From: a virus
Lineage: Duplodnaviria > Caudoviricetes
IMG/VR virus record: IMGVR_UViG_3300044648_000096
Span: 1-53,974 of that record
Length of the DNA: 53,974 bases
Direction: 5' to 3' (one strand)
A model generated the notes under the pieces. The model searched no databases. It saw nothing but the letters and a program-made list of their open reading frames with translations, and was not told the DNA's origin. Below, one piece after another: positions 5,959 through 53,974 of this stretch. The position numbers were made by a program, and so were the translations under genes. The stretch's first letter is position 1. Every line of letters begins with the position of its first letter.

Positions 5959-5979
5959 TAATTACAAAATCTGTAAACT

Positions 5980-8078: not shown

Positions 8079-8951
8079 ATGAATATTCCGAAGTATATAG
8101 AAAGGTATCGGAAAGACTTAGAGTTTTTAAGATACCGCCAAAACTCAGTAGAATCATACGTTTCTTGCGTAACGGTATTTCTTAACCATTTTATTAACAA
8201 AAAAGATCACGAACACATAAACGAATCAGAAATAAAAGACTTCTTATATCAATTCAAAGAACACAACACACAAAGAGCATATCACTCTGCTGTAAAGGCT
8301 TTTTATAAATATACTTGTAAGCAACCAAATAAATTCAAATGGATTCAGTATTGTAAACGCAATCGTAAATTACCAATAGTTCTTTCCCCCGCCGAAATGC
8401 AAAGAATTATATTCTCATGCACTAATCTTAAGCACAAAACCATCATTTGCTTAATGTACTCAACAAGCATTAGGGTAAGTGAAGTAATAAGCCTTAAAAT
8501 AGCAGATATAGACCCGGATAGAATGATTATAATGATTCGTGACGCTAAGGGCGGGAAAGATCGGCAAGTGCCGCTAGACCCAATTCTATTAGAATTAATA
8601 CGCGAATATTACAACCAATATTCTCCCGCCGAATATTTATTTAACGGGCAATTTGACTTGAAATATTCTACGCGAAGCATCGCTCAATTTTTACAAAAAT
8701 ACACAGATGCGGCGGGGATAAATAAACGAGTTTATCCACACCTAATCCGCCATTCATCAGCAACACATTTACTAGAAGCTGGACTAGATTTAAGCATTAT
8801 CCAAAAAGTTCTTGGTCACAACTCAATACAAACAACTCAAGGTTACACTCATATAAGCAATACGTTAATAAGCAGAGTTAAAACCCCGCTCAGTTATATT
8901 ACAATTCCTGTAAAAAATCAAATAGAAAGAAATAATTTACAACTTGTGTAA
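8079..8951 (+). CDS. Tyrosine recombinase, integron-integrase-like/XerD family with N-terminal SAM-like domain
   Basis: Catalytic set intact: SIR, KGGKDR, HLIRH, LGH, GYTH; also LPIVLS. No obvious IntI-specific insertion before HxxR. Confidence 0.9.
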   Translation: MNIPKYIERYRKDLEFLRYRQNSVESYVSCVTVFLNHFINKKDHEHINESEIKDFLYQFKEHNTQRAYHSAVKAFYKYTCKQPNKFKWIQYCKRNRKLPIVLSPAEMQRIIFSCTNLKHKTIICLMYSTSIRVSEVISLKIADIDPDRMIIMIRDAKGGKDRQVPLDPILLELIREYYNQYSPAEYLFNGQFDLKYSTRSIAQFLQKYTDAAGINKRVYPHLIRHSSATHLLEAGLDLSIIQKVLGHNSIQTTQGYTHISNTLISRVKTPLSYITIPVKNQIERNNLQLV

Positions 8952-20248: not shown

Positions 20249-22765
20249 TTAGATATTATTTATCCAAGAATTATTGTAATAATCGTATTGGTTTTGATTC
20301 AAAGATTCATTAGCTAATCTAGCCCCGCCAACTATATTTTTTATGCCAGCACCAGCTAATGCTGCCCCAGCCTGTTGCTTGGCGTTGAAAGCATTCATGG
20401 CATCGTTAAATAATTGCCTTGACATACCCGCTCTTTGCGCCGATAAAGACGTTGCGTATTCTTGCTTATTTTGCTTTACTTGATTATCTGCTATTGAATT
20501 TTGTAAATTACTCATCACCGCATCATTAATTGCAGTACGCTCCATATTAAAAGCTGCCCCGGCATTACCCCCCGAATAGTTTCTTGCAGCAAACCTAGCA
20601 TCATTTAATAACGCTTGGTTCTTTTGATCTAAAGCAAACTTTTCATCATTTGTAAATCCAAATTTAGCATTTGCTTGAGCTAAGTTTACATTAGCGTCAA
20701 ACGTTGGGTCTATTTTATCAATAGGGCGTTGTTCGTTGGTCGCCTCTAATCCTTTCTTTAATTGCCACGCTCCAAATCCCATATCCACTAATCCTGATGG
20801 CATATTAAAATTCTTAAATAAGTTTTGAAGTTTTCCGCCCCTGTTATCATCACCGCTACTTTCAATTTGCGGATGTTCTTTCTGATACTTCTGAGCCGAT
20901 TGGTTTAATTCCTTTGCTTGCGCATCAGTCAAATCATTGGTTTTTGTTCCCGGCGCAAGTGGGGTTTGCTGAGTTCCGGGAACCATAGGGTAATCTCCCG
21001 TATCATCTGCCATTGAAGGGGCAAATCCTAACGCCTTAGCTAATGCGCTATTGTTAGGCTTTTTTGTGCCGCTAGAAACGGTTTTGCTGTTTTGATTAGT
21101 ACTAGGCTTGGTTGCACCACCTTTAAATTGATTAAAAGACGGTTTAGCCATTACGTTAGGTATTCCGCTAGCTGGCTGTTTTGCTGATTGAGTATTAACT
21201 GACGCAGACTTTGTTTTAAAGGTTCCGTCATCGTTCCAGTTCTTATCATCATTCACAAACTTCAACCTGTTATCAGCCTCATCAAATTCTTTTTTTGCAG
21301 CATTTATTTTATTAAGCACATCTTCTCTTTCGGCATCATTCCCTGCCAACTTATAAGAAATATCCTTTAATGAATTATACTTATTTTGTTTTGCTTTCCA
21401 ATCCTTGTAAAGTTCAGTTCTTACTTTCTTTTTCTTTTCGCCAACCTCATAAGCAGATGCTCTTTTGTTTCTTGCCGCCTCATCAGCTTTTAACCTAGCC
21501 TCTTGATCTGATTTTGCTTTAGCTTCTTTAGCTTTTTTCTCGGCTAACTTCTTTTTCTCGGCTGCCACAAAATCATCATCCTTTTCTCCACCTTCTCTAA
21601 AATTATCTCCGCCCTCTGCATTAGGGGCTAAGGCATCTACATCAACACCTTTTTCTTCGAGTTCAGACACCTCTGATTTAGTAAATAAATATTCTTCATC
21701 GGAAAGCTTTACAGGCGTTCCGTTCTTCTGGTGAAGTTTAGCTTTCGTATTTGGGTTTTTACCCAATACAGCGGCTTTAAGCATTTTCGCAATGTGAAGA
21801 TTTTCATTTGGAACAACAAATGAACCGTCTTTAATCTCAGCATTAATACTGTCAGATTTAGGCGTTCCCTTACCTTTAATTTCCCCGCCATTTGCGTATG
21901 TAGCTTCGTATATTTTATTTGTTTTATCAGAAGCTAATATTCCAGCTTCGCGGTTCTGAATACCTTCTTTTGCTAACTCCTGTTGTTTTCTTTTCTTTTC
22001 TTCGTTAACCTTAATTACATTGGCAATTTCTTGGTTATCTAAATTATCCCTGTAAGCTTTTGCGCTCACTCCCGGTAAAAACACAGAACCTATTTTTTCA
22101 GCAGTACTAGAATTCTCATTCGACCAAGTTTCGGTCATACCCCTAAATGGGTCAACAAATGCACCAATCTGAGCGTTTCTTTTTGCCGCTTTTTTATCAG
22201 TGAATGTTCCGTCAGAATTAGTTCTTTCAGCGTTTTGCTTTATTGGGTCGCCAATCATATTTCCAAATGCAGCAATACCCCCAATAGCCCCTCCAATCGG
22301 GCCAATTTTAGATACCGTACCCATTCCTGAATTGTAAACTGTATTGCCTTTTCCTTGAGCTTGCTGACTAGCAAAATAAGAGCTTCCAACAGCCCCTAAT
22401 GCTTCCCCTGCTGCGTTTTGAGCGGCTTTTGAATTTGCTGCTTTCCTATCACCGTCAGACATATTAGAGTTCTTGCCTACGTAATTTCCCTGAAAAGAAT
22501 TAACGCCTTGAGAAATTCCCCCTCCAATAGCAGATGAATTATCTGAGAAATTATCATAGAAACTAGAGCTTCCTTTTGATTGAAATTCGCCACCTTGTTG
22601 TGATTGCAAAGTATTACTAGAAATATTTTCTCTTGTAATCGGTTGCCCGTAAGAATCTGTGATAATATTACCGCTTGAATCTATCGCCCTGCCCCTATCA
22701 TCATAACCAGCGATTTCCCCGCCGATTGAATATCCTTTTCTTTTATAACCTTTTGGAACTTTCAT
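20249..22765 (-). CDS. Putative ejection/cargo protein (start likely MKVPKGY at 22765)
   Basis: Gly-zipper segments, coiled coil and (Y/F)xxGG motifs. N-terminus resembles that of the upstream gene. A TAnnTTTG element at 22784-22791 overlaps the longer predicted start. Confidence 0.65.
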   Translation of the reverse strand: MKVPKGYKRKGYSIGGEIAGYDDRGRAIDSSGNIITDSYGQPITRENISSNTLQSQQGGEFQSKGSSSFYDNFSDNSSAIGGGISQGVNSFQGNYVGKNSNMSDGDRKAANSKAAQNAAGEALGAVGSSYFASQQAQGKGNTVYNSGMGTVSKIGPIGGAIGGIAAFGNMIGDPIKQNAERTNSDGTFTDKKAAKRNAQIGAFVDPFRGMTETWSNENSSTAEKIGSVFLPGVSAKAYRDNLDNQEIANVIKVNEEKKRKQQELAKEGIQNREAGILASDKTNKIYEATYANGGEIKGKGTPKSDSINAEIKDGSFVVPNENLHIAKMLKAAVLGKNPNTKAKLHQKNGTPVKLSDEEYLFTKSEVSELEEKGVDVDALAPNAEGGDNFREGGEKDDDFVAAEKKKLAEKKAKEAKAKSDQEARLKADEAARNKRASAYEVGEKKKKVRTELYKDWKAKQNKYNSLKDISYKLAGNDAEREDVLNKINAAKKEFDEADNRLKFVNDDKNWNDDGTFKTKSASVNTQSAKQPASGIPNVMAKPSFNQFKGGATKPSTNQNSKTVSSGTKKPNNSALAKALGFAPSMADDTGDYPMVPGTQQTPLAPGTKTNDLTDAQAKELNQSAQKYQKEHPQIESSGDDNRGGKLQNLFKNFNMPSGLVDMGFGAWQLKKGLEATNEQRPIDKIDPTFDANVNLAQANAKFGFTNDEKFALDQKNQALLNDARFAARNYSGGNAGAAFNMERTAINDAVMSNLQNSIADNQVKQNKQEYATSLSAQRAGMSRQLFNDAMNAFNAKQQAGAALAGAGIKNIVGGARLANESLNQNQYDYYNNSWINNI

Positions 22766-22838
22766 TATGGATGAGTTTTGATTCAAATATAATGCTTATA
22801 TACAATAATTTATAAACAACTTATAAAACAAAAAACAA

Positions 22839-22916: not shown

Positions 22917-23726
22917 TTAGCACATTCTACCGCCCTTATTCATTCTTGGCGGCTTTCTGAACCTCTTTACTTCCCCGCCATCCTTAAATGATGCGGAAAC
23001 GCCCGTAATACCTCTTTTAACTGGTTTATTAATTAAATATGGATTATTGTCTTTTTCAGTTACCACTTCGCCAGAAGTTGTCCTGTTCGGCAACATAGTC
23101 TTGCCAGTACCATCATCGCGTATGGTCGTTTGCCTTAACTGATCTAATGTTCTTCCCGTTCTGTAAGGTGTTAAATCCTGTCCCGGAGTCCATTTAGCTG
23201 GGTCAACCTTAACTTCAAAGCCATCTTTATCAACAGTTACAACTTCACTTTGATTAACTTGCCCATCAATGTTATGAAGCTTATATCCAGTCCAGTAATC
23301 ATTGGTTTGCTCAGGTACAAACGTAACCGCCTCTTGTCGGCTTACCGCTGGTTGAACCTTTGCGCTTGCAACGGATGGCTCTATAAATAGAATTTCTTCC
23401 GCCGATTGCTGTGCGGGTAGAGTGGTGGTAGTTGACCTTCTTGGCTTGATTGGTGGAGCTTTTTTAAACCCGGTTGGATTTGTTGTCTGTATGGGTGTTG
23501 GATTAACGGGTCGAGTCCTCGTTTTTTCAACTGGCGGAGTTGTACTTGCTGATTCTTTTACGAAATAAGTTTTTCCATCAGAAGATGTTTCTTCTTTGTA
23601 ACCAGACCTCAATAATTCATCCCTAGTCTTGTTACTTTTTAAACCTTTAGAATAATCTCGTAATCGCGGGTCTTGTGTTCCGCCATCTGCGTAACCTGTA
23701 CGCTTAAATCCTTTTGGTAATTTCAT
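22917..23726 (-). CDS. Hypothetical late protein (possible cargo)
   Basis: 269 aa, Pro/Thr-rich, with YADGG, FKDGG and MNKGG motifs. Confidence 0.65.
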   Translation of the reverse strand: MKLPKGFKRTGYADGGTQDPRLRDYSKGLKSNKTRDELLRSGYKEETSSDGKTYFVKESASTTPPVEKTRTRPVNPTPIQTTNPTGFKKAPPIKPRRSTTTTLPAQQSAEEILFIEPSVASAKVQPAVSRQEAVTFVPEQTNDYWTGYKLHNIDGQVNQSEVVTVDKDGFEVKVDPAKWTPGQDLTPYRTGRTLDQLRQTTIRDDGTGKTMLPNRTTSGEVVTEKDNNPYLINKPVKRGITGVSASFKDGGEVKRFRKPPRMNKGGRMC

Positions 23727-29680: not shown

Positions 29681-29896
29681 TTAATTCTTGTGTACTACAA
29701 AATAAACAAATGCTGTTTTATATTCCGACCAAATGTTTCCAAACATAGGGTCGCCATTTGATAGCAAATATCGCGGGTGAACAAAATCAAATTGCTCTAC
29801 CTGACCAAAATCAATTCTTCTAGGAATACACCTATCATTCTTGTTCCCTATCTGAACCAAGTGGTGATTACAATTATTGTAAATTTCCTTACTCAT
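29681..29896 (-). CDS. Small hypothetical protein
   Basis: 71 aa, fits exactly between neighbours with 2-bp gaps. Confidence 0.55.
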   Translation of the reverse strand: MSKEIYNNCNHHLVQIGNKNDRCIPRRIDFGQVEQFDFVHPRYLLSNGDPMFGNIWSEYKTAFVYFVVHKN

Positions 29897-29898
29897 TT

Positions 29899-30357
29899 TT
29901 ATTTTTTACAGATTTTGTAATAAGTATCTGTTTCAATTAATGCTTTATGTACTCGCCGGGAAAAACTCTGAGCGGGTTTAAAGTAAATCTTTTTATCCCC
30001 CGCCAAACTGTTTTTATACTCAATACCATACTTCACATTTCCTCTCTTTCTATTGATATTATCAGCTTTCTTTAACTTCCCGTCCCTTGTTACATAAAGT
30101 CCTTTTTTTAATAACTCTAAACTCTTGCTTTCAAGTATCGGCTCACCTACTACTTGAATACTTGCGTGTTTACCAAGCTTCACCTCATTACCATCCAACA
30201 CTTCCTGAATCACACCATACTCAAGCCAATTTCCTACTATTTCATTTATGTCCTTTGTACTGATCGGCTTACCAAATTTCTTCTTAAACCGTTTCTTCAC
30301 CAAAGAAATAAATCTCTTTTTACTGAACTGATTGCGTGGTTTTTTCTTTAATGTCAT
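29899..30357 (-). CDS. IHF/HU-like DNA-binding protein (crAss-type)
   Basis: Basic; VLDGNEVKLGKHASIQV...IYFKPAQSFSR; in the conserved crAss position. Confidence 0.65.
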   Translation of the reverse strand: MTLKKKPRNQFSKKRFISLVKKRFKKKFGKPISTKDINEIVGNWLEYGVIQEVLDGNEVKLGKHASIQVVGEPILESKSLELLKKGLYVTRDGKLKKADNINRKRGNVKYGIEYKNSLAGDKKIYFKPAQSFSRRVHKALIETDTYYKICKK

Positions 30358-38891: not shown

Positions 38892-39671
38892 TTACTGTTC
38901 AGCTTGCTTTGAGATTTTATCTGCGAATGCAGATTTGTCGTATGCAGAGATTCCGCCCTGTAAGATTTGAGCCATTGTTCTTGCTAAATCTTCGTGCATA
39001 ACATCGGGTAAATTGCTTGTAAGAGTTTTAGAAGCAAGTATTACTTGACCACTTGTTAGGTTAGTATTGGCGGAAGTAAATTGATCGCCCGGATTGTAAT
39101 TAACGCTATTATGTGTAGAAGGAGCGGTACAGATATAAGATGTGGCGTTTACTAAAACACCAGTTCCTTCATTAATAAGGTCAGATTCGGTTCCTATTGT
39201 GTAATTTGCGGGAGCTATAAGATAGTTTAATTCCCCCGCCAAAGTGCCGCCTAAGCCTCTATAAAGAGTCCACCCAGTCGAATCCTCTAAGTGATACACC
39301 TTTGAATTACTTGGCTTACGGAAAGAACACAATAGCAATGGATTTAACTCATTATTATTGATGGGCTTCACATACGCCCTCTCGCCATCCACAAGTAAGT
39401 CTAGGAAGCTTAAATAATGATAATCGGTAGGATAATTGATGTGGTTAATAGTGAATTCAGTCCCCACCGAAGTTGTTGTAATGGTAGCTGTTATTTTTTT
39501 AAGAAGCGTGTATAATTTCTCACGAATAGATACTTCATTCTTTTTGTACATATCAAATATAATCATCTGAGCTTCCCGCCCGGCATTGTTATACTGATTG
39601 AATGAAAATCTACCAGACCTTGATCTGTCCATGTAAAAATCACATCTTTCCCTTATTTGTACACTATTCAT
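38892..39671 (-). CDS. Head-tail adaptor/ring protein
   Basis: 259 aa; synteny; C-terminal LPDVMHEDL motif. Confidence 0.6.
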   Translation of the reverse strand: MNSVQIRERCDFYMDRSRSGRFSFNQYNNAGREAQMIIFDMYKKNEVSIREKLYTLLKKITATITTTSVGTEFTINHINYPTDYHYLSFLDLLVDGERAYVKPINNNELNPLLLCSFRKPSNSKVYHLEDSTGWTLYRGLGGTLAGELNYLIAPANYTIGTESDLINEGTGVLVNATSYICTAPSTHNSVNYNPGDQFTSANTNLTSGQVILASKTLTSNLPDVMHEDLARTMAQILQGGISAYDKSAFADKISKQAEQ

Positions 39672-39723
39672 TACAATATTTGTAAATTAAATTAGCACTA
39701 AATTATTATTACAGTATTTGTAA

Positions 39724-40964: not shown

Positions 40965-42446
40965 TTACGCTGCCTTGTAAAGGATACCGCAAAGTGTCGG
41001 GTTGTATACGCAAAGCATATCTTCCTTCAACATTGCTACCTTATCAGCATCAACTTCTGACTGAACTAATCCTTTAGAACCAGTTAAACCAATATAAGAT
41101 GCCTCTACGCTTGAACGGTTAACACCGTTAGCTTCTTTACAAAGGATTTCCATTGTAGGTTGGTCATCAGTGCTGATACCCATTGCGAAGTATGTAGATG
41201 ACATTAAAGAACGTCCATCTGCACCAACTTCTGGGAACAGTTGCTCATCATCAAACATTGGGTCAAGCACGAAATACGCGCTGTTTCCATTGATGTTGAA
41301 CTTAGTGAAGTTGTAACCAACTTCTACCTCAGCACCACCAGCTTGTGAGCTTTGAGTGATGTTCTGAACCATTGTGATGTTCTGATTACCAGAAAGGTTA
41401 ACCATCTTCTGTTGAGCATTCTCATACCCATCAGTTCCAGTTAAGAATACCCATACGATGTTCTGAACTTGGTTAGAACTCTTTTGCATGGTTTTCATCA
41501 AATCAGCAAAGTCATCTTCTGTTGCCTCACCGTTAGTTCCTGAACCAGTCGCTACGTTTGTAGAAGATACTTGTTCTTCCCATCCGTCACCGATCATAAT
41601 TGGAAGCCCGGTTTCAGGGTCGTTACCAAGTTTTGATTCAGTTGCTAAAGAGCCGTCAGAATTCTTCATAGAAGATACTGAGAACTTCTTGTGACGCTCG
41701 TTTTCCATAGCGTACTGTGCGCGAGCTTGCTCTACTGCCCAATACATCCATCCAATTTGCGCTCCGTCTGCATATTCATACCAAAGAATATCCGACTTTG
41801 CACTACCAGTGATGGCAATAGTCTTACGTTGGATAGTCATGTGGTTGATATAAGTATCAGGGTGCTTTGAACGGCTATCTGACCTTAGTGAACCTTCTGA
41901 GTAAGAAGTAAAGAGCGGGAAACAAGTTTTGATTGACCCTACGTGAGTTGCGTAAACAAACGCAGTTCCAGTTACCGACTTGAAGTTATATACATAACCT
42001 GTTGCGCTAGAACCAGAAGCATAACTCATTACACGAGCTTGGTAACCGCTAGAAAAACGAACTACTTGACCCGGATAAAGGTAAGTGTCTTGCATTTTAA
42101 GGCTGAAATCGCCATTTGCGCCTGATGCTCCTACTTGAGAAAGGATTGTGGCTGCTTTTTCGATACGTCCGATTACATCAAAACGATAAGCATTGTTTCC
42201 AATACCTTTTGACTCGTTCATCTTTGGAACCTTAGTATCTACTTTTCCGTTGATTCCATAACGTCCTACCGCGCCGGAGGTTAGGTAAGTCATCATATAA
42301 CGCTTGTTACGGAACTCAAGCATTTTGCGGTAAGCTGGCTTAACCGCTTGATTTGTGATTAAATCATTTTGTGTTGTACAAGTATCTGCGTTGTACGTAC
42401 CCCTTTTAATATTAATTTGACCGGGGTTAGTTGGTGCTACTGACAT
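40965..42446 (-). CDS. Major capsid protein (HK97 fold, crAss-like)
   Basis: 493 aa in terminase-portal-scaffold-MCP order; YSEGS...NHMTIQRK..ITG motif; highly biased codons. Confidence 0.8.
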   Translation of the reverse strand: MSVAPTNPGQINIKRGTYNADTCTTQNDLITNQAVKPAYRKMLEFRNKRYMMTYLTSGAVGRYGINGKVDTKVPKMNESKGIGNNAYRFDVIGRIEKAATILSQVGASGANGDFSLKMQDTYLYPGQVVRFSSGYQARVMSYASGSSATGYVYNFKSVTGTAFVYATHVGSIKTCFPLFTSYSEGSLRSDSRSKHPDTYINHMTIQRKTIAITGSAKSDILWYEYADGAQIGWMYWAVEQARAQYAMENERHKKFSVSSMKNSDGSLATESKLGNDPETGLPIMIGDGWEEQVSSTNVATGSGTNGEATEDDFADLMKTMQKSSNQVQNIVWVFLTGTDGYENAQQKMVNLSGNQNITMVQNITQSSQAGGAEVEVGYNFTKFNINGNSAYFVLDPMFDDEQLFPEVGADGRSLMSSTYFAMGISTDDQPTMEILCKEANGVNRSSVEASYIGLTGSKGLVQSEVDADKVAMLKEDMLCVYNPTLCGILYKAA

Positions 42447-43750: not shown

Positions 43751-45961
43751 TTATTCTGAGAGCATATCATTTGACATTTTGTGATTTTGCTCAATAACTT
43801 TGTTCTTTGCTTTATTGTCATCGACTTCCATTTGCACTTTACCTTTCAGCATAATATCATTGGAAGCTTGGTTTTGGCGATCTTCTCTGTCCTCTTGAGC
43901 GATCTGTAAGTTTGTTTGAAGTTGTTGTTGTTGCATTTGCATTTGCGCCTCACGGTCTGCTTGCGCTGACTCCTGAGCTATTTGCTGCACTCTTTGAAGT
44001 GATTCGCGGAAAATATTCTCAGCCTCAACAGTAGTCTCAGCCATTTCAAATCTCAAAGCATCTAAAGCACTTATTTCTTTGGTATTCATTCCAAACTCAA
44101 TATAAGCCCTCATGCGACTTCTTAATTCATTGTACTTGCCACCATCGTTAATATGCACACCATAATCCCTATATCCCAACTCGCGGGTGACTTGCATATA
44201 CTTATACTTCTCACTGCCTAGTATCTGCTCACCCTTGTCAAGTTTGTAAAACGCCCAGCTTACTTTTGTAGCCTCTACAATCTTTGTCATTACATTCTCG
44301 ACAAATAATTGCATCTGATAAAACAACGGTTCTGTCATTGTTCTACTTGCTTTAATCGCATCTTGAGAATTTGTTACAGTGGCGGAAGCGGCTATTTGTC
44401 CTTGTCGATTATCGTTAATCCCGGTAAGTCTATCTAGCGTATTTAAAAGCGTATCAAGTAATGCTAATATTCCTTCAAAGGATTGACTAAAACCAAGATC
44501 GTGTTCTTGCATCATTGATTTTAAATCAAGATTTTTCCCTGAGAAGTTTCCTGATGCTGCTGAGTTTGTAGTAATAAACCCATCATTCACCGCGTCATAC
44601 ATCAATTTCTTTAAAGTGGTGTTCTTTGGCAACGCAGCTAAGTCATACGCTAAAATCTTTCCTTTTGCCCTGTTAAGCTCTTTCATTAATTGGTACATCC
44701 CAATATCAAAAGCGGTATCAAAGTTCTCTATAACCTGCTGTAAAGGGATTCTGATACCGTCTACGGTTCCGAACAAACATCCAACATAAGAACTATCCAA
44801 AATATACGCTGGCGCATCATGGCTTCTCATTTGGAATGGCTTACGCCTCATGTTTACATCAAGCTCAGGCAAGCCACCAATTCGCGTAGCTTCCCATAAA
44901 TCTTCTTCCCACCCGGTTTCAATTTTGAAATGTCCTTTCTCCACACCCTTATCGTATTTAGCCTTGTTTGGCTCATATACATCATAAGGGATTTCATTCA
45001 TAATTTCAGTGGTAGTATCATCATAAGCCAACTGATTTGGGGTCTTTGGCATTATTTTATAATAAGACGGTTTAACTGATTTCCATTCTATATGAAGCAC
45101 AGTACACATTACCCCGCCTCCTTCGCCTTTAGCTAGCATACCCCGGCTTTGGCGTATATATGTTTCAGGATTTTGCTGCACATTGTACAATAAATCCCTT
45201 TGTTCTTTAGTTAATTCATACCTACGCAATACCTCATGGATAGGCATACGCATTCTGCATCCTTTGATCGGACTTTTCTCAATGAAATCATCCCCTTCTA
45301 TTTCTTCGTAAATGAAATCACGCGGGTCAATCTTCATAAAATCAACATCACCCTTTTCATTTATTTCAATCTTAGCAAAACACTTCCCGGTAATCCTTGC
45401 ATCTAAAAAACACTCTCCAAATTTCTTTACAAGTTTTAATGCTTTGATTTGCTCATTGACAATAATCTGCATTATATCTTCTTGCTTGTCCTTTGGACTC
45501 ATCTTTGCCCACAGAGGGTCGTCCTCACTCTCAGGTACGGGCGCACCTTCCATTACGTCTACCCCGGCTATTTCTTTTAATTCCGCTAATTCATCCTTAG
45601 CGATCATTGCTCCCATCATAAAATCCATTGCCGCCATCTTTTCAGATTTAGCCTGAATGTTTACGGTTTCAACAGTAGCGTTTAATGGTCTTGTTAACCA
45701 CTCTCCGCTCAATAAATCTTGTTTGGTTCTCCCCACGCGATAGGCAATGAATTTAGCCCTGTTCTGCACACCGTAAGTAGCTTCTAGCCACTTTATACTA
45801 TCGGGAGATTTAACGCCGTTATATGAGTTATAAAGCCGCGTAGCTTTATTTCTTTCGTTGTCTGCGTTGTTTAATAATGATTCTGCGTAGTCTAAGTGTT
45901 TTTTACACCATTCTGGTGTCTTTTCACTTTGCGGAATATCCTGTCTTGGAAAAATTGACAT
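43751..45961 (-). CDS. Portal protein
   Basis: 736 aa after the terminase; FPRQ.IP..EKT.EW start, LTGINDNRQGQI, Gln-rich C-terminal barrel helix. Confidence 0.85.
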   Translation of the reverse strand: MSIFPRQDIPQSEKTPEWCKKHLDYAESLLNNADNERNKATRLYNSYNGVKSPDSIKWLEATYGVQNRAKFIAYRVGRTKQDLLSGEWLTRPLNATVETVNIQAKSEKMAAMDFMMGAMIAKDELAELKEIAGVDVMEGAPVPESEDDPLWAKMSPKDKQEDIMQIIVNEQIKALKLVKKFGECFLDARITGKCFAKIEINEKGDVDFMKIDPRDFIYEEIEGDDFIEKSPIKGCRMRMPIHEVLRRYELTKEQRDLLYNVQQNPETYIRQSRGMLAKGEGGGVMCTVLHIEWKSVKPSYYKIMPKTPNQLAYDDTTTEIMNEIPYDVYEPNKAKYDKGVEKGHFKIETGWEEDLWEATRIGGLPELDVNMRRKPFQMRSHDAPAYILDSSYVGCLFGTVDGIRIPLQQVIENFDTAFDIGMYQLMKELNRAKGKILAYDLAALPKNTTLKKLMYDAVNDGFITTNSAASGNFSGKNLDLKSMMQEHDLGFSQSFEGILALLDTLLNTLDRLTGINDNRQGQIAASATVTNSQDAIKASRTMTEPLFYQMQLFVENVMTKIVEATKVSWAFYKLDKGEQILGSEKYKYMQVTRELGYRDYGVHINDGGKYNELRSRMRAYIEFGMNTKEISALDALRFEMAETTVEAENIFRESLQRVQQIAQESAQADREAQMQMQQQQLQTNLQIAQEDREDRQNQASNDIMLKGKVQMEVDDNKAKNKVIEQNHKMSNDMLSE

Positions 45962-48933: not shown

Positions 48934-48973
48934 TTTTACGGATTTTGTAATTTTTATTTCGGCGGGAGATTAT

Positions 48974-49195
48974 TTACTGATTTTGTAAAGAGGTGTCAAT
49001 GAATTTTACATCCGTCCCGTCAGGATTGAAAATTTTAACTGGATTTTCTACGTCTTTTCCAGAATAATTTCCACTTGCTTTTGAGCAATACACAATTACG
49101 CCCTCTTTTTTGTATTTCTCTATAATGTCATTCATTTTAGCGTTTTTGGGCAAGGCGGCTAAATCATAAGCTAGTATTTGTTTTTCTTCACTCAT
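48974..49195 (-). CDS. Mini-protein paralogous to an internal portal segment
   Basis: ILAYDLAALPKN-x21-ASGNYSGK versus portal ILAYDLAALPKN-x21-ASGNFSGK. Confidence 0.8.
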   Translation of the reverse strand: MSEEKQILAYDLAALPKNAKMNDIIEKYKKEGVIVYCSKASGNYSGKDVENPVKIFNPDGTDVKFIDTSLQNQ

Positions 49196-50594: not shown

Positions 50595-51272
50595 TTATGC
50601 TGTTTTAGCGTTTAATTCTATTACAGGGGTTGTTTCTTCGTCGATAACAAAGTTCTCGTCGGGGTTAACGGTAATATATCCTTTGCCTTGTAAAAACTCC
50701 TGACAAAACGCCTTTTGTTCTTCCTCGCTCATGTTCTTGAAGTCATTCAAATCTTCCTCTCCTTTTTTACCCTTCCTTATAAGATTCTCCACATACCTCA
50801 GTCCCATTTCCTCAACCGATACTGGCCTATTCCCAGCCGCGTACTCCCTTACTTCCTCCAAAATCTCGCCAAAAATTTTCTTAACCTCAGCAAATTCAGG
50901 GTACTTATCTTCTTCCTCTAATACGGCGGTTTTCAACTTAATCGTTTTCCCCGTTTCCTGATTCACCAGCTTTGTCCCGGTAATTACAAAGGCATTGTTA
51001 CCTTTTAATTCCACATCGGTAATCGTAGTGTCATTCACCGCGAACTCAAATTCCATTTCATCGCGCGGGTTTTGACAAACTTCGCAGAGATTCAACAAAT
51101 GTGATCGCAATTCTTTAAACTTTTTCTCTAATCCCAAATGGATAGGATACTTCGGTTCGTGTTTGGCGGGAGTCATATAACTAAACCCGTCCTTAAATTC
51201 TTCTACTTTCCCTTTTAATTTTAAACCGCTAATTCCGTTTTCAACTAGCGTAACCCGTTCTATTATGTTCAT
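50595..51272 (-). CDS. Hypothetical protein
   Basis: 225-aa ORF coupled to both neighbours. Confidence 0.7.
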   Translation of the reverse strand: MNIIERVTLVENGISGLKLKGKVEEFKDGFSYMTPAKHEPKYPIHLGLEKKFKELRSHLLNLCEVCQNPRDEMEFEFAVNDTTITDVELKGNNAFVITGTKLVNQETGKTIKLKTAVLEEEDKYPEFAEVKKIFGEILEEVREYAAGNRPVSVEEMGLRYVENLIRKGKKGEEDLNDFKNMSEEEQKAFCQEFLQGKGYITVNPDENFVIDEETTPVIELNAKTA

Positions 51273-52162
51273 ATTTCTATTTTTAATTGATTTTTTCTTT
51301 TGTTTTCATAAAACTTTAACATTGATTGTCTCATTTTTTCAAGGGTTTCTTTACTTCTTGGCGGCCTTTTACTTTGAAATTCACTCATTTTTTTTCTAGC
51401 CTCAACAGATGCTTTCCTACCTTTTAGTTTAGCTTTAGTTTCATCAGAAAGCTTTTTGCCTAATTTTGCTTCTCTTATTTTCTGCTTAGTCTCGATAGAA
51501 TGTTTCTTGCCATAAAAAGGATTTCGCTCTCCATTTATGTTATCGCAAAACTTTAACCGATGCTCTTTAGATAATTTTTTTCCCTTCTTTTTTTCACTAA
51601 GAAGTTTTTTAGTTTCTTCATTGTGCTTTTTTCCAAAAAAAGGATTGCTCTCTCCAAATTTCCTAACACCATTAAAATTAGAATTTTTTCTCATTTTTTC
51701 TATGGTTTCAGGTTTATGTTTTTTACCAACCCACCATTTAGATATTTTTTCTGCGTGTTCTGGCGATAATTTTTTTCCTTTTCTAGCTGCGCTAATTTTC
51801 TTTTTAGCTTCTTCTGATAACGGAATACCCATCCTAGAGTCAGCCTTTTTAAGAACATTATATTCTGGACATAAAGAATCAAGATAAAACTGCTCCCTTG
51901 AAATAATAAACTCTTTTTTTATTTCTTCTATAATTTCTAAAACCTCAAACGAAAAAGAAGATTCTCCATACTTATTAAAATCATTTTGGAGTTTGAAGCT
52001 GTGATGTTTTCCTTTTCTCAACGTAATCAAATGAGAATTTTTTCTAATTCTCATGTTTAATGTAGAACCAATATATATCTTTCCGTTTATAACATTTGTT
52101 ATACTATAAATACAACAAAAATCTGTTTTGCTGTGATCTTCTATTTTATTCCAAAATGCCAT
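51269..52162 (-). CDS. GIY-YIG homing endonuclease with NUMOD3-type repeats
   Basis: CIYSITNVINGKIYIGS, REQFYLD, YN; repeated NPFFGKKH.EETK. Confidence 0.9.
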   Translation of the reverse strand: MAFWNKIEDHSKTDFCCIYSITNVINGKIYIGSTLNMRIRKNSHLITLRKGKHHSFKLQNDFNKYGESSFSFEVLEIIEEIKKEFIISREQFYLDSLCPEYNVLKKADSRMGIPLSEEAKKKISAARKGKKLSPEHAEKISKWWVGKKHKPETIEKMRKNSNFNGVRKFGESNPFFGKKHNEETKKLLSEKKKGKKLSKEHRLKFCDNINGERNPFYGKKHSIETKQKIREAKLGKKLSDETKAKLKGRKASVEARKKMSEFQSKRPPRSKETLEKMRQSMLKFYENKRKNQLKIEI

Positions 52163-52293
52163 TTAATTAAATTACGTGTTTTATTCCAGATTCGGTGGGG
52201 AAAAGAAAGACGCATAATCGTACCATATCTGTACTTTTCTTCTTTCCAATATACATCAAACTCCGTCATCTAAAACAATATATTGATTCGTAC

Positions 52294-52542
52294 TCATCTT
52301 GCATATTCATCCAATTTTTTAAAATATCCACAAACTGCATCACCCTCATACCAAATAACATTAGTCTTTGCTCTCCCAGTTACACTAATCGTTCTTCTTT
52401 GAATGGTCATGTGGTTCATGTATTTCGGCGGGGAAATAGACTTCTTCTCTACAAAGTCCGTCACAGCCAAAACCTTATCCGCCGGGATTAAACCGCTCCC
52501 AACCAAAAAACCCAACGATCTTAAAAATCCCCTTCTTTCCAT
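52294..52542 (-). CDS. Mini-protein with twin-arginine-like leader fused to a major capsid fragment
   Basis: MERRGFLRSLG followed by YMNHMTIQRRTISVTGRAKTNVIWYE (17/26 identical to the MCP). Confidence 0.75.
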   Translation of the reverse strand: MERRGFLRSLGFLVGSGLIPADKVLAVTDFVEKKSISPPKYMNHMTIQRRTISVTGRAKTNVIWYEGDAVCGYFKKLDEYAR

Positions 52543-52826
52543 TACAAGTTCTGTAAATTTTTATCGTCGGCGGGATTTTTTACATCTTCTGTAAATTCTA
52601 CACTCAATATCCCCAACAACTCCGATCTATTCTTAGCCAACCTCGCAGCAATCAAATTTAAAACCCTGTCCCTTTCTTTCTTATCCGACTCATAATTCTC
52701 ACTATACAAAATAGGAAAACTAACAAGACTCATTAATTCCTCATCACCCCTTATCAACCCAATCAACTCACCCTTACGACTACTTTCCATTCGCCAACCC
52801 CTTCCTATATTCCTCCAACTTCTCAA
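52542..52826 (-). CDS. Hypothetical protein (start likely MESSRK)
   Basis: ORF coupled to both neighbours. Confidence 0.55.
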   Translation of the reverse strand: MRSWRNIGRGWRMESSRKGELIGLIRGDEELMSLVSFPILYSENYESDKKERDRVLNLIAARLAKNRSELLGILSVEFTEDVKNPADDKNLQNL

Positions 52827-52986
52827 TCTCCGCCAACTTCAAATCAATAGCACCATTCATCAAATCCGTCAAACTCCCATACTTACCCTTCCACTCCCGC
52901 AACCTCGCCAACCTTACCCTGCTAACCCTTACACTATCCGTCTCATCAGCCATAATCCTTTCACTACTATTTTTATTCTCACTCAT
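52780..52986 (-). CDS. Small ribbon-helix-helix-like DNA-binding protein
   Basis: SVRVS..RLARL...SLTDLMNGAI; first gene after TACATTTG (52991-52998). Confidence 0.45.
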   Translation of the reverse strand: MSENKNSSERIMADETDSVRVSRVRLARLREWKGKYGSLTDLMNGAIDLKLAEIEKLEEYRKGLANGK

Positions 52987-53274
52987 ACCACAAATGTAAG
53001 CAAACCTCTACAATAAAATTATTTTATATAATATTTTTTCTAACATAGTTTTCCACAATCTAACACAAATTAATCCGATATGGGGTGGGTAGGTTTATGG
53101 GATAATTACACCCTCTTTGCGTTTTCGGGAATCGCCCAACGTAGGGGGGGCGGTTGAATTTTAGAAGCTGGATTTAGAAAGCATTCTTTTTTAGGATTTA
53201 CGGCTGTTAGTAAGTTTTGCACTACTACACTGCATTTATTTGTAAGTTTGGCATCAAATCAATTTATAGTTTGC

Positions 53275-53502
53275 ATGAGAATATATGGTATATCCAAAGA
53301 AAACGAGCTAATGCCGGACGCGTACAAGTCATTAAGGCCACTTTGTAAGGCATACGGCATTAGTTATAGCACCGCAGCACACGGTAAGACAGAGTTCTTA
53401 ATAGGTGGCGTGAAGCTTAAAATCCACACCTTTTATTTAAACAAAATTAAGGGAAGGGGCAACCCTAATATAGGCAAGTATGCTAAAGGCGGCAATAATT
53501 AG
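53275..53502 (+). CDS. Small basic hypothetical protein (possible DNA-binding)
   Basis: ATG at 53275; YKSLRPLCKAYGISYST; TAAGTTTG at 53243-53250 upstream. Confidence 0.5.
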   Translation: MRIYGISKENELMPDAYKSLRPLCKAYGISYSTAAHGKTEFLIGGVKLKIHTFYLNKIKGRGNPNIGKYAKGGNN

Positions 53503-53974
53503 ATATAGGCGCGTTTCGTTTGCTTCTAGCGTTAGATACTGGCTTCATATATTATTGCCTTAAATCGCTTTATTTTACGTTATACGGTGTTTTAGGGTAA
53601 TTTGTATTATATCCCCTCTGTTTTGATTTGTGGGTTTTGGGTTGGTGTTTGGGTTTGGGTTTAGGTGTGTTTTGTGATTGGTGTTAGATGTTTTGAATCA
53701 ATTTTAACATAATATGAGTTAAGTGTATGTGTTATGTCTCTGTTTGAGTCTTGTGTGTTATTTCCCCGCCGAGTTTACAGAATTTGTAAATATTGGGTGT
53801 TTGGGTTTTACCGGGATTCCCGGTGCGTTTATGGCTTTTTAGTTTACTTTGAGGTGTTAAAGTATATTAGCTAGTGTTATAGTTTACTTTAGTTTCTCCC
53901 CGCGCGATTTACAAATCTTGTAAATTATCAATAGATCATCTTATTATTTACACCCTCTGTAATTGCATGAATAA

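Follow-up and report, generated by a model that had tools for sequence, protein, structure and literature searches.

A family of small phage genes that joins a Tat-like leader to a strand of the major capsid protein

The viral DNA record IMGVR_UViG_3300044648_000096 (Duplodnaviria; Caudoviricetes) carries a small gene, ORF82, in which a leader resembling a twin-arginine translocation (Tat) signal stands in front of a segment homologous to the phage's own major capsid protein (MCP). The window, by which we mean the complete IMG/VR record of 53,974 bases, is classed as linear and approximately 71% complete and has a G+C content of 38.4%. ORF82 (52294..52542, minus strand) is an open reading frame (ORF) of 82 residues with an ATG start and belongs to a family of 38 sequences, here called mini-genes, with minis as their products. 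A small unannotated phage ORF thereby becomes readable as an export-type leader plus one strand of the phage's own capsid, a combination that is recurrent and is paired with a portal-derived gene. The architecture and its conservation are solid and were unexpected.

We are highly confident that ORF82 is a real gene under selection with a leader-helix-linker-strand architecture. The role of its product is a more tentative matter, and we give a probability of about 0.4 to the whole statement, mechanism included, that it is a selected strand-mimic micro-protein. The invariant strand, disordered when alone, would dock by beta-augmentation onto a partner that pairs with or recognises the corresponding strand of the MCP, the mini would act as a competitor or decoy, and the leader would bring it to or across the inner membrane. 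The family is kept by purifying selection and spreads patchily in a variable region, often beside homing endonucleases. Export, docking and the identity of the target we infer from the features described below.

The capsid-derived segment and the mini-gene family

The MCP gene of the window (40965..42446, minus strand) encodes a Crassvirales HK97-type protein of 493 residues that matches Pfam Crass_capsid (3.2e-25) and, by profile, gp32 of crAss001 (PDB 7qof, 1.5e-29); its AlphaFold2 (AF2) model has a predicted local distance difference test score (pLDDT) of 85. The original prediction aligned 26 residues of ORF82 (52345-52422) without gaps to this protein (41775-41852) and counted 17 identities, a figure that our recount reproduced. 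BLASTP lengthens the match to residues 32-66 of ORF82 against residues 190-224 of the MCP, still ungapped, with 19 of 35 residues identical, 29 of 35 positive and a pairwise expect value (E) of 6e-14, and at the DNA level 56 of 77 positions (73%) are identical. The self-search suggested with that prediction was run by tblastn with all window ORFs of at least 100 residues against the six frames of the whole window. The capsid and portal mini-ORFs stand out in it, the pairs ORF82/MCP (E 8e-10) and portal/ORF73 (E 1.5e-7) being the only non-self matches below E 0.007.

The MCP-derived module of ORF82 comprises residues 32-74 (52321..52449, minus strand), with a core, NHMTIQRRTISVTG, that is nearly invariant in the family. 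Its source segment in the MCP, residues 190-224 (41775..41879, minus strand), holds strand 198-212, a turn and strand 219-225. Profile-profile alignment with hhalign places mini columns 38-92 on MCP residues 188-241 (probability 98.3%, E 2.4e-14) and leaves the leader unaligned, so the local homology of ORF82 to MCPs is significant both pairwise and between profiles. The complete HK97 body (N-arm, E-loop, P- and A-domains) is absent from ORF82, which has 82 residues against the 493 of the MCP. A frameshifted continuation of the homology, hinted at by small blastn matches, was ruled out by the in-frame continuation ..WYxFxDxxAEGF/W.. in the family, equivalent to MCP 225-235. Pfam and PHROG scans of ORF82 gave zero matches, hence no nuclease domain; the endonuclease described below is a separate neighbouring gene.

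In the AF2 model of the MCP, two strands (198-202 and 204-212) precede a turn, two more (219-225 and 230-235) come after it, and a long helix spans 236-255. The model of ORF82 (pLDDT 63) has helices at 3-16 and 21-33, with the rest, including the MCP-like part, as coil. Counted on the profile alignment, the copied segment maps to approximately residues 195-225 of gp32. The accessible text of PMC10172136 gives residues 79-180 of gp32 as a beta-barrel I-domain inserted in the E-loop, and on this alignment the copied piece is therefore the strand returning from the E-loop insertion together with the following P-domain hairpin. In long members it would also include the start of the spine helix, named by position. 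The source of the mini is thus an interaction element of a self-assembling parent (E-loop-return and P-domain strands and the helix start). The mini-conserved residues N43 and R49 are also the most conserved in MCPs, where the consensus is INHxTIQRK and R207 is invariant in 48 MCPs. A complex prediction for the MCP with the mini scored 0.00 with controls absent, and is evidence neither way.

A direct single-sequence search with ORF82 returned only ORF82 itself, and its apparent orphan status was overturned by two further searches. An exhaustive search with the MCP gave 155 proteins at E<=1e-3, among them five small proteins (81-112 residues) in which the match is confined to MCP ~170-255 and starts at their own residue ~17-34, and which have the entire build of ORF82. 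A seven-member profile search gave 42 proteins of 73-152 residues, 37 of which (73-116 residues, ORF82 included) have both the leader and the capsid-like core. The other five are P0172 and P0176, without the first residues only, P0187, with the leader and no core, and P0180 and P0181, which are plain MCP fragments. These 37 proteins and a copy read from locus L019 form the 38 rows of our alignment (A3). A single-sequence search may thus miss a family which a search with the parent protein finds.

Searches for further mini-gene loci were also made at the DNA level. In viral DNA the pattern for the gene matched 11 loci, of which one was real and already known, and a leader-only pattern gave 118 matches, none confirmed as a mini-gene. 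The pattern used on metagenome DNA was too loose, matching at least 120 loci with none real by hidden Markov model (HMM). Genome contigs searched for the mini-gene gave one contig with an MCP only (L174). This 55.5-kb contig stands in a metagenome-assembled genome labelled as a Nitrososphaerota archaeon, encodes a crAss-type MCP of the window's clade (485-residue frame) and lacks the mini-gene; it is probably a phage contig mis-binned into the archaeal assembly.

All members are built alike, with the conserved 'TDFIEKK' helix behind the Tat-like leader and the MCP-like strand 'NHMTIQRKT..ITG' behind a linker that varies. In consensus form the N-terminal part reads M-x-R-R-G-F-L-K-S-L-G-x-L, five residues, I-P, then x-x-x-L-x-x-T-x-F-I-E-K-K, and the C-terminal part consists of a linker of 5 to ~26 residues, F-V-N-H-M-T-I-Q-R-K-T-V-x-I-T-G and a variable tail, which in longer members tracks the MCP as far as residue 255. 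Residues R3, F6, P20 and N43 are invariant in the alignment and L7, L13, I47, R49 and G56 are at least 90% conserved, while the mean column identity is 30%. PF23898 matches 10 of the 38 members at a lenient E. The conserved middle segment of ORF82, residues 21-34 (52441..52482, minus strand), is ADKVLAVTDFVEKK, for which the family consensus is xxLPxTDFIEKK and AF2 predicts the helix 21-33; compared with MCPs it gave no match beyond a reversed-sequence control.

Selection, origin and the leader

Over residues 41-66 of ORF82 and 199-224 of the MCP the proportion of synonymous differences (pS) is saturated at 0.72 and that of nonsynonymous differences (pN) is 0.18. Pairs among the three mini-genes for which DNA was available, those of the window and of two related IMG/VR records (G001 and G016), gave pS 0.62-0.78 and pN 0.40-0.43. 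Under neutral drift, protein similarity would be lost over the time needed to reach a saturated pS, and between ORF82 and the MCP it has been kept. Frameshifts in relatives had been named with the original prediction as the mark of a decaying remnant; none was found, and all 38 homologues are intact, with a conserved start and without frameshift or stop. Packing is tight: the ATG of ORF82 has one base in common with the TAA that ends the ORF before it (TAATG), the G001 copy has an ATGA-type overlap with its upstream gene, and the G016 copy overlaps its downstream gene by 4 nt.

We therefore regard ORF82 as a selected gene because of the 38 intact homologues and the low pN relative to pS. The opposite view, that it is a chance ORF or a decaying remnant left by illegitimate recombination or homing-endonuclease repair, can point to its position in a variable region, with a homing endonuclease beside it, to the first search, which gave no small homologue besides ORF82, and to a copy of the repeat CCCGCCG inside ORF82 that marks precisely the 5' boundary of the DNA match to the MCP. 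Against intact homologues that share start, leader and core, the pN and pS values and the packing in all three genomes, this view is hardly credible.

The linkers of some members hold further pieces of the MCP in the right order. P0153, P0160 and P0175 match MCP ~34-52 and P0164, P0174 and P0178 match MCP ~68-89, with best E values of 1.8e-5 (P0153, MCP 41-52) and 3.7e-5 (P0164, MCP 74-88); in a shuffle control the lowest E over 20 sets was 1.4e-4, and 4 of the 20 sets gave any match below 0.01. Because these extra pieces are in order, the ancestor may have been an MCP gene minus the I-domain and everything after the long helix, later trimmed differently in each line. Judged from the sequences, the family probably has a single origin by partial duplication of an MCP gene, since the leader is common to all members and the tree does not reject it: the tree of ~70 common columns is poorly resolved, and the constrained topology is 5 log units better (p-AU, from the approximately unbiased test, 0.54).

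The leader of ORF82 (residues 1-20; 52483..52542, minus strand) consists of M-E-R-R-G-F-L-R, a 12-13 residue uncharged stretch and the family-invariant Pro20. The N-terminus, quoted as MERRGFLRSLGFLVGSGLIP in the original prediction and likened there to a Tat signal, reads as given, and residues 2-8 (E-R-R-G-F-L-R) fit the established Tat consensus S/T-R-R-x-F-L-K. The pair RR occurs in 27 of the 38 members. The uncharged stretch has 11-13 residues (median 12; median Kyte-Doolittle value 1.67) and ends at Pro20 in the 33 members where it is countable. Pfam TAT_signal (PF10518) matches 19 of the 38 at E<=10, the best at 5e-4, and the closest feature clusters of a language model (Atlas) are those of Tat-signal proteins, at 0.88, which we take as a lead only. 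Read from the alignment, an A stands at -1 before [VT][DE][FY] in many members, not all, and AF2 models the leader of ORF82 as helix 3-16 with low confidence. On sequence grounds the Tat-like leader is a conserved feature of the family, and export itself is a prediction.

Derivation of the leader from the MCP was ruled out, since a leader HMM matched 112 MCPs no better than reversed sequences and hhalign left the leader unaligned. In a single member, P0134, the alignment reaches a more upstream part of the MCP (~154-198), which is a hint only. A leader of the ORF82 type was found in no other ORF of the window or of 53 related loci, and is for this reason not a phage-internal targeting tag of several proteins.

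These properties of the leader bear on two other accounts of the mini. In the first, the leader is a true Tat or Sec signal and the strand has been re-used away from the capsid by a secreted or envelope protein, for example in superinfection exclusion or in interference with an envelope machine by beta-strand docking. The signal-peptide anatomy of basic n-region, uncharged stretch and Pro break is conserved in 38 of 38 members, half of them match TAT_signal, the leader is exclusive to the mini-gene in the loci compared, and the gene is distributed as accessory genes are, all of which suits this account. However, it is precisely the MCP-conserved residues that the strand has retained, which points to a common partner or role, the second Arg is absent in 11 of 38 members, and there is no clear cleavage-site motif in all of them, so that we consider it unlikely, if worth keeping in view.

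The second account takes the Gly/Ser/Leu-rich leader as a docking peptide inside the HK97-type shell, with the mini packaged in the capsid. Cargo-loading peptides of encapsulins dock inside an HK97-type shell in this way. For the mini, the leader's composition and fixed length are all that fits, together with the packaging of cargo proteins by crassviruses described in the accessible text of PMC10172136. The leader is carried by no other phage ORF examined, its HMM has no match in MCPs and the TAT_signal matches are a simpler account of it, which leaves a capsid-interior role highly improbable.

Genomic context and possible functions

ORF82 lies in a leftward gene string that runs from ~11.4 kb to 53.0 kb of the window. 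In leftward order this contains two small ORFs, ORF82, a GIY-YIG homing endonuclease, a 225-residue ORF, an RNase H-like gene, an exonuclease, ORF73, ORFs of 114, 186 and 669 residues, the portal gene (43751-45961, minus strand; 736 residues; 7qog gp20, 7.1e-17), a 391-residue ORF and the MCP gene. The 669-residue ORF is terminase-like, judged by position. The two small ORFs upstream of ORF82 (52780-52986, 68 residues, and 52542-52826, 94 residues, both minus strand) gave zero family matches in Pfam, PHROG and NCBIfam scans; the second has 94 residues when read from TTG, or a shorter form with an internal ATG start.

A DNA pattern for the core led to 32 related IMG/VR records, which may be fragments, with an MCP of the window's clade. 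The mini-gene is present in two of them, G001 (100% complete) and G016. In 16 of the 32 the sequence extends for 12 kb or more upstream of the MCP; two of these have the mini-gene and 14 do not, and with the window included it is found in 3 of the 17 related genomes whose flank is long enough. The mini-gene is thus an accessory gene, and each of its three known copies stands upstream of the MCP at a distance of 9-10.6 kb.

The homing endonuclease downstream of ORF82 (51269..52162, minus strand; 131 nt away) is of the GIY-YIG/NUMOD3 type (NUMOD3 3.2e-28, GIY-YIG 9.1e-8, phrog_314 2e-39) and is the sole GIY-YIG match among the 54 scanned ORFs of the window. A 290-residue phrog_314 endonuclease (3e-10) is the gene that overlaps the stop of the G016 mini, so a phrog_314 endonuclease directly follows the mini in two of the three contexts. 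The window and G016 proteins are just 29% identical in the repeat region and are therefore separate arrivals. The G016 mini-gene is bracketed by two different homing-type endonucleases, an HNH type upstream on the other strand (L019:2221-2553, minus strand) and the phrog_314 type downstream (L019:3356-4228). No endonuclease stands beside the G001 mini, where the next genes are a 112-residue ORF and homologues of the window's 225-residue ORF and exonuclease. In G001 a GroES-like gene (L052:2210-2665; phrog_3188, 1.8e-8) is located ~500 nt downstream of the portal mini and a DnaJ-domain gene (L005:6575-7195; 3.7e-15) ~800 nt, or two ORFs, upstream of the capsid mini.

Since the three contexts differ and an endonuclease adjoins the mini-gene in two of them, its spot is variable and endonuclease-prone. 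Endonuclease-driven co-conversion of flanking DNA is known from T-even phages and would explain the patchy spread of the mini-gene. The same neighbourhood could suggest that the stretch is kept at the DNA level, as the recognition or homology site of the adjoining endonuclease: phrog_314 genes directly follow it twice, the window has a single GIY-YIG gene among 54 ORFs, and the core is the most conserved stretch of the MCP gene. We hold this to be very improbable, however, as the G001 mini has no adjoining endonuclease, the two endonucleases have diverged to 29% identity in the repeat region, and it is the protein that is conserved, leader and middle helix included, at saturated synonymous sites.

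The window contains a second gene of this kind, ORF73 (48974..49195, minus strand; 73 residues), the ATG of which overlaps the stop of the upstream exonuclease gene. The portal fragment reported in the original prediction is indeed present, with 22 of 45 residues of ORF73 (match at 49046-49180) identical to portal residues 435-479 (44525..44659, minus strand). This source segment aligns to crAss001 gp20 ~458-505, just before the inner stem helix at 519-541 given in the accessible text of PMC10172136, and for this reason is probably located in the clip/stem region. ORF73 has no leader. A homologue of 82 residues stands elsewhere in the G001 genome (L052:1459-1707; 24 of 69 residues identical, E 5e-11), so that both well-covered phages, the window phage and G001, carry both mini-genes. 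The prediction of a set of small paralogues of structural proteins thus holds, with capsid and portal minis co-occurring in a complete genome, and in the window the two share a strand and stand upstream of the structural genes, as had been proposed.

Several observations weigh against a strand-mimic micro-protein. Some come from the leader: the second Arg is replaced in 11 of 38 members (RG in five, RL in four, RS in one, RK in one), which is unusual for true Tat substrates; ORF82 itself has no TAT_signal match in Pfam at E<=10 or in NCBIfam; and the near-fixed length of the uncharged stretch, with the over-conserved segment that follows, is as compatible with a binding helix as with a signal. 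Outside the cytoplasm, moreover, a mimic of a cytoplasmic capsid protein would be oddly placed, and an exported decoy of a cytoplasmic trigger is awkward. Several members end right after '..ITG', so that one strand alone is universally kept. The resident MCP ranks 4th, 4th and 11th of 33 among MCPs by closeness to the mini in the three genomes, leaving co-evolution of the mini with its own MCP unsupported, and the genomic contexts read number three.

A rival role, in which the mini binds the MCP like a dominant-negative paralogue and either delays or localises the phage's own assembly, perhaps at the membrane, or spoils that of co-infecting relatives, with ORF73 acting likewise at the portal, would make it a capsid-assembly regulator or poison subunit. 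The E-loop/P-domain region makes inter-subunit contacts in HK97-type capsids, and it is from this region that the element was copied; N43 and R49 are the most conserved residues in both minis and MCPs, and chaperone genes are present (Cpn10 in the window, GroES-like and DnaJ-domain genes near the minis in G001). A core assembly factor would be expected in all relatives, however, and 14 of the 16 with enough flank are without the mini; a poison not matched to its own MCP would hit the phage itself equally; and the signal-like leader is left unexplained. We therefore see assembly control as possible and rather unlikely.

The existence of host sensors of portal, terminase and MCP makes a decoy reading attractive. 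As presented in the accessible part of bioRxiv 10.64898/2026.01.04.697583, Avs sensors recognise all three proteins, and they do so by their whole core folds. In its most elaborate form this would be a two-part counter-defence kit, with the leader-tagged MCP strand and the portal segment baiting host sensors and the Tat-type leader carrying bait and bound sensor to the translocon or membrane, so that the sensor would leave the cytoplasm by hitch-hiker export or sequestration and not just be outcompeted, which we rate as a long shot. Action of the minis as epitope mimics against CapRel- or Lit-type defences, towards which the original prediction pointed, is likewise hypothetical. The more general strand-mimic reading leaves the partner of the strand wider, and if it is true the mini-genes mark surfaces of capsid and portal that are important to partners or host sensors.

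Upstream of ORF82 stand two paired palindromes of the form T(T/A)ACA-N5-(T/C)GTAA (52542..52594, minus strand); 38 nt separate them, a CCCGCCG copy (52568-52574) lies in the gap, and the ATG of ORF82 starts at the last base of the proximal one. A pair in the same register precedes the gene 38892-39671, and similar pairs follow ORF73 and the G001 portal mini, conserved between the window phage and G001. Read in one frame, the palindromes supply the C-terminal '..LQN(L/Q)*' of ORF94, of ORF73 and of the portal mini in G001, and twice they overlap the ATG of the gene that follows. The palindromes, which stand in pairs at gene junctions, were recorded in the window at 52542-52594, 48936-48990, 39671-39723, 29868-29920, 8899-8951, 53775-53962 and 5962-5976, and outside it at L005 502-554 and 3811-3863, L003 11024-11076 and L052 1692-1745. 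The pairs are probably a clade-specific promoter, operator or junction element; if so, ORF82 would head or join a regulated unit like bona fide structural genes. A scan of 51900-53400 for sigma-70 promoters and terminators was uninformative, with three promoter-like sites against 5.3 expected and zero terminators.

Base composition predicts 1.03 copies of the repeat CCCGCCG in the window, whereas 39 are present (22 on the plus and 17 on the minus strand), for example at 52426-52432, 52568-52574, 48960-48966 and 53765-53771. The copies fall within coding DNA in every phase and in either sense, often in the form T(C)CCCGCCGA, with the plus strand predominating from 13 to 48 kb and the minus strand from 48.7 to 52.6 kb. 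In 35 related loci there are 0-3 copies each, and L019-L022 and L027 over-use GGCGGAC/GTCCGCC instead. A DNA signal specific to the host, whether Chi-like or for uptake or modification, is one possible role for CCCGCCG.

The MCP of the window is only 22-24% identical to MCPs of named crAss-like phages in GenBank, and megablast, a neighbour-protein query and a single-sequence MCP query gave no close relatives of the window, with none or distant matches only. Contigs of two soil metagenome runs from two studies contain pieces identical to the window, and one of these (run X1) may be the source sample; in the second study the identical pieces include 52418-52627 with zero variants among the DNA contigs. 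Together with the Crass_capsid and gp32 matches, these results identify the window phage, as far as sequence can, as a divergent soil-borne crAss-like phage. The 54 scanned ORFs also include a tyrosine integrase (Phage_integrase 1.6e-38) and a Cpn10/GroES-like protein (1.3e-8), a notable pair for a crAss-like phage, as well as an HNH protein, a CAP-domain protein and crAss tail ring proteins 1 and 2. Two neighbouring large ORFs (22917-23726 and 20249-22786, minus strand) have a common 16-residue N-terminus (11 of 16 identical, E 0.008-0.018) that may be a targeting or processing tag. Near the right end, a G/T-rich low-complexity stretch of GGGTTT-like repeats (53580-53700) has a contig depth of 593 against ~14 elsewhere in run X1, whose contigs are interrupted and joined again around 53213-53511 and 53640-53837; the stretch may be repeated sequence or an end that assembles unstably.

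Comparison with known systems

Within the literature searched, supplementary files being outside its scope, we found no paper on such a family, on crAss-like phages with twin-arginine signals or on truncated phage MCP paralogues. By its sequence features the mini family is a member of no described family, falling outside the MCP family and sharing the features of Tat signals in part. Like the Tat signal peptides of bacterial periplasmic proteins (PF10518 / TIGR01409), the minis have a basic S/T-R-R-x-F-L-K motif, a weakly hydrophobic uncharged stretch and a helix-breaking Pro. They differ in the replacement of the second Arg in 11 of 38 members, in ORF82 lying below detection and in the passenger, which is a capsid-derived peptide of ~60 residues with predicted export rather than a folded cofactor enzyme. 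The core is homologous to the strand after the I-domain, the hairpin behind it and the first part of the long helix of Crassvirales gp32 (7qof; PF23898), but just ~54 of ~490 profile positions are present and a foreign leader and helix have been added. Lacking the A-domain, the I-domain and a complete P-domain, the mini cannot form the HK97 fold.

Small accessory proteins that act on HK97-type capsid assembly are known from satellites that redirect capsids, namely P4 Sid, SaPI CpmB and PICI Ccm, one of which is an MCP homologue. The minis are likewise small and accessory, but the satellite proteins are satellite-encoded, have full domains and carry no signal-like leader. The setting of ORF82 resembles the hyperplastic regions of T4-type phages, in which free-standing homing endonucleases accompany repeat-flanked small ORFs; the window similarly has a small accessory ORF of patchy occurrence beside GIY-YIG/HNH endonucleases and repeated junction motifs. 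We know of no counterpart in those regions of a gene made of a capsid fragment and a leader.

Segments of capsid proteins trigger abortive infection through the T4 Gol peptide and Lit and through CapRel, and for Lit a short MCP peptide is enough. The MCP and the portal, both copied here, are thus recognised by host sensors, although such systems are set off by the structural protein itself. The accessible part of the Avs study (bioRxiv 10.64898/2026.01.04.697583) describes no separately encoded decoy fragment, and its sensors recognise whole folds whereas the mini is a single strand.

The minis may be most usefully set beside small paralogues of this general design. Eukaryotic micro-proteins retain nothing of a multimerising protein but its interaction segment, and they work as dominant negatives. 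The mini is likewise a short paralogue with one contact element of a self-assembling parent, and a second gene does the same for the portal; it differs in its phage setting and its export-type leader, and binding to the parent is hypothetical here. If the minis are mimics they would be, to our knowledge, the first case in which a phage turns parts of its own virion proteins into separate regulators or counter-measures.

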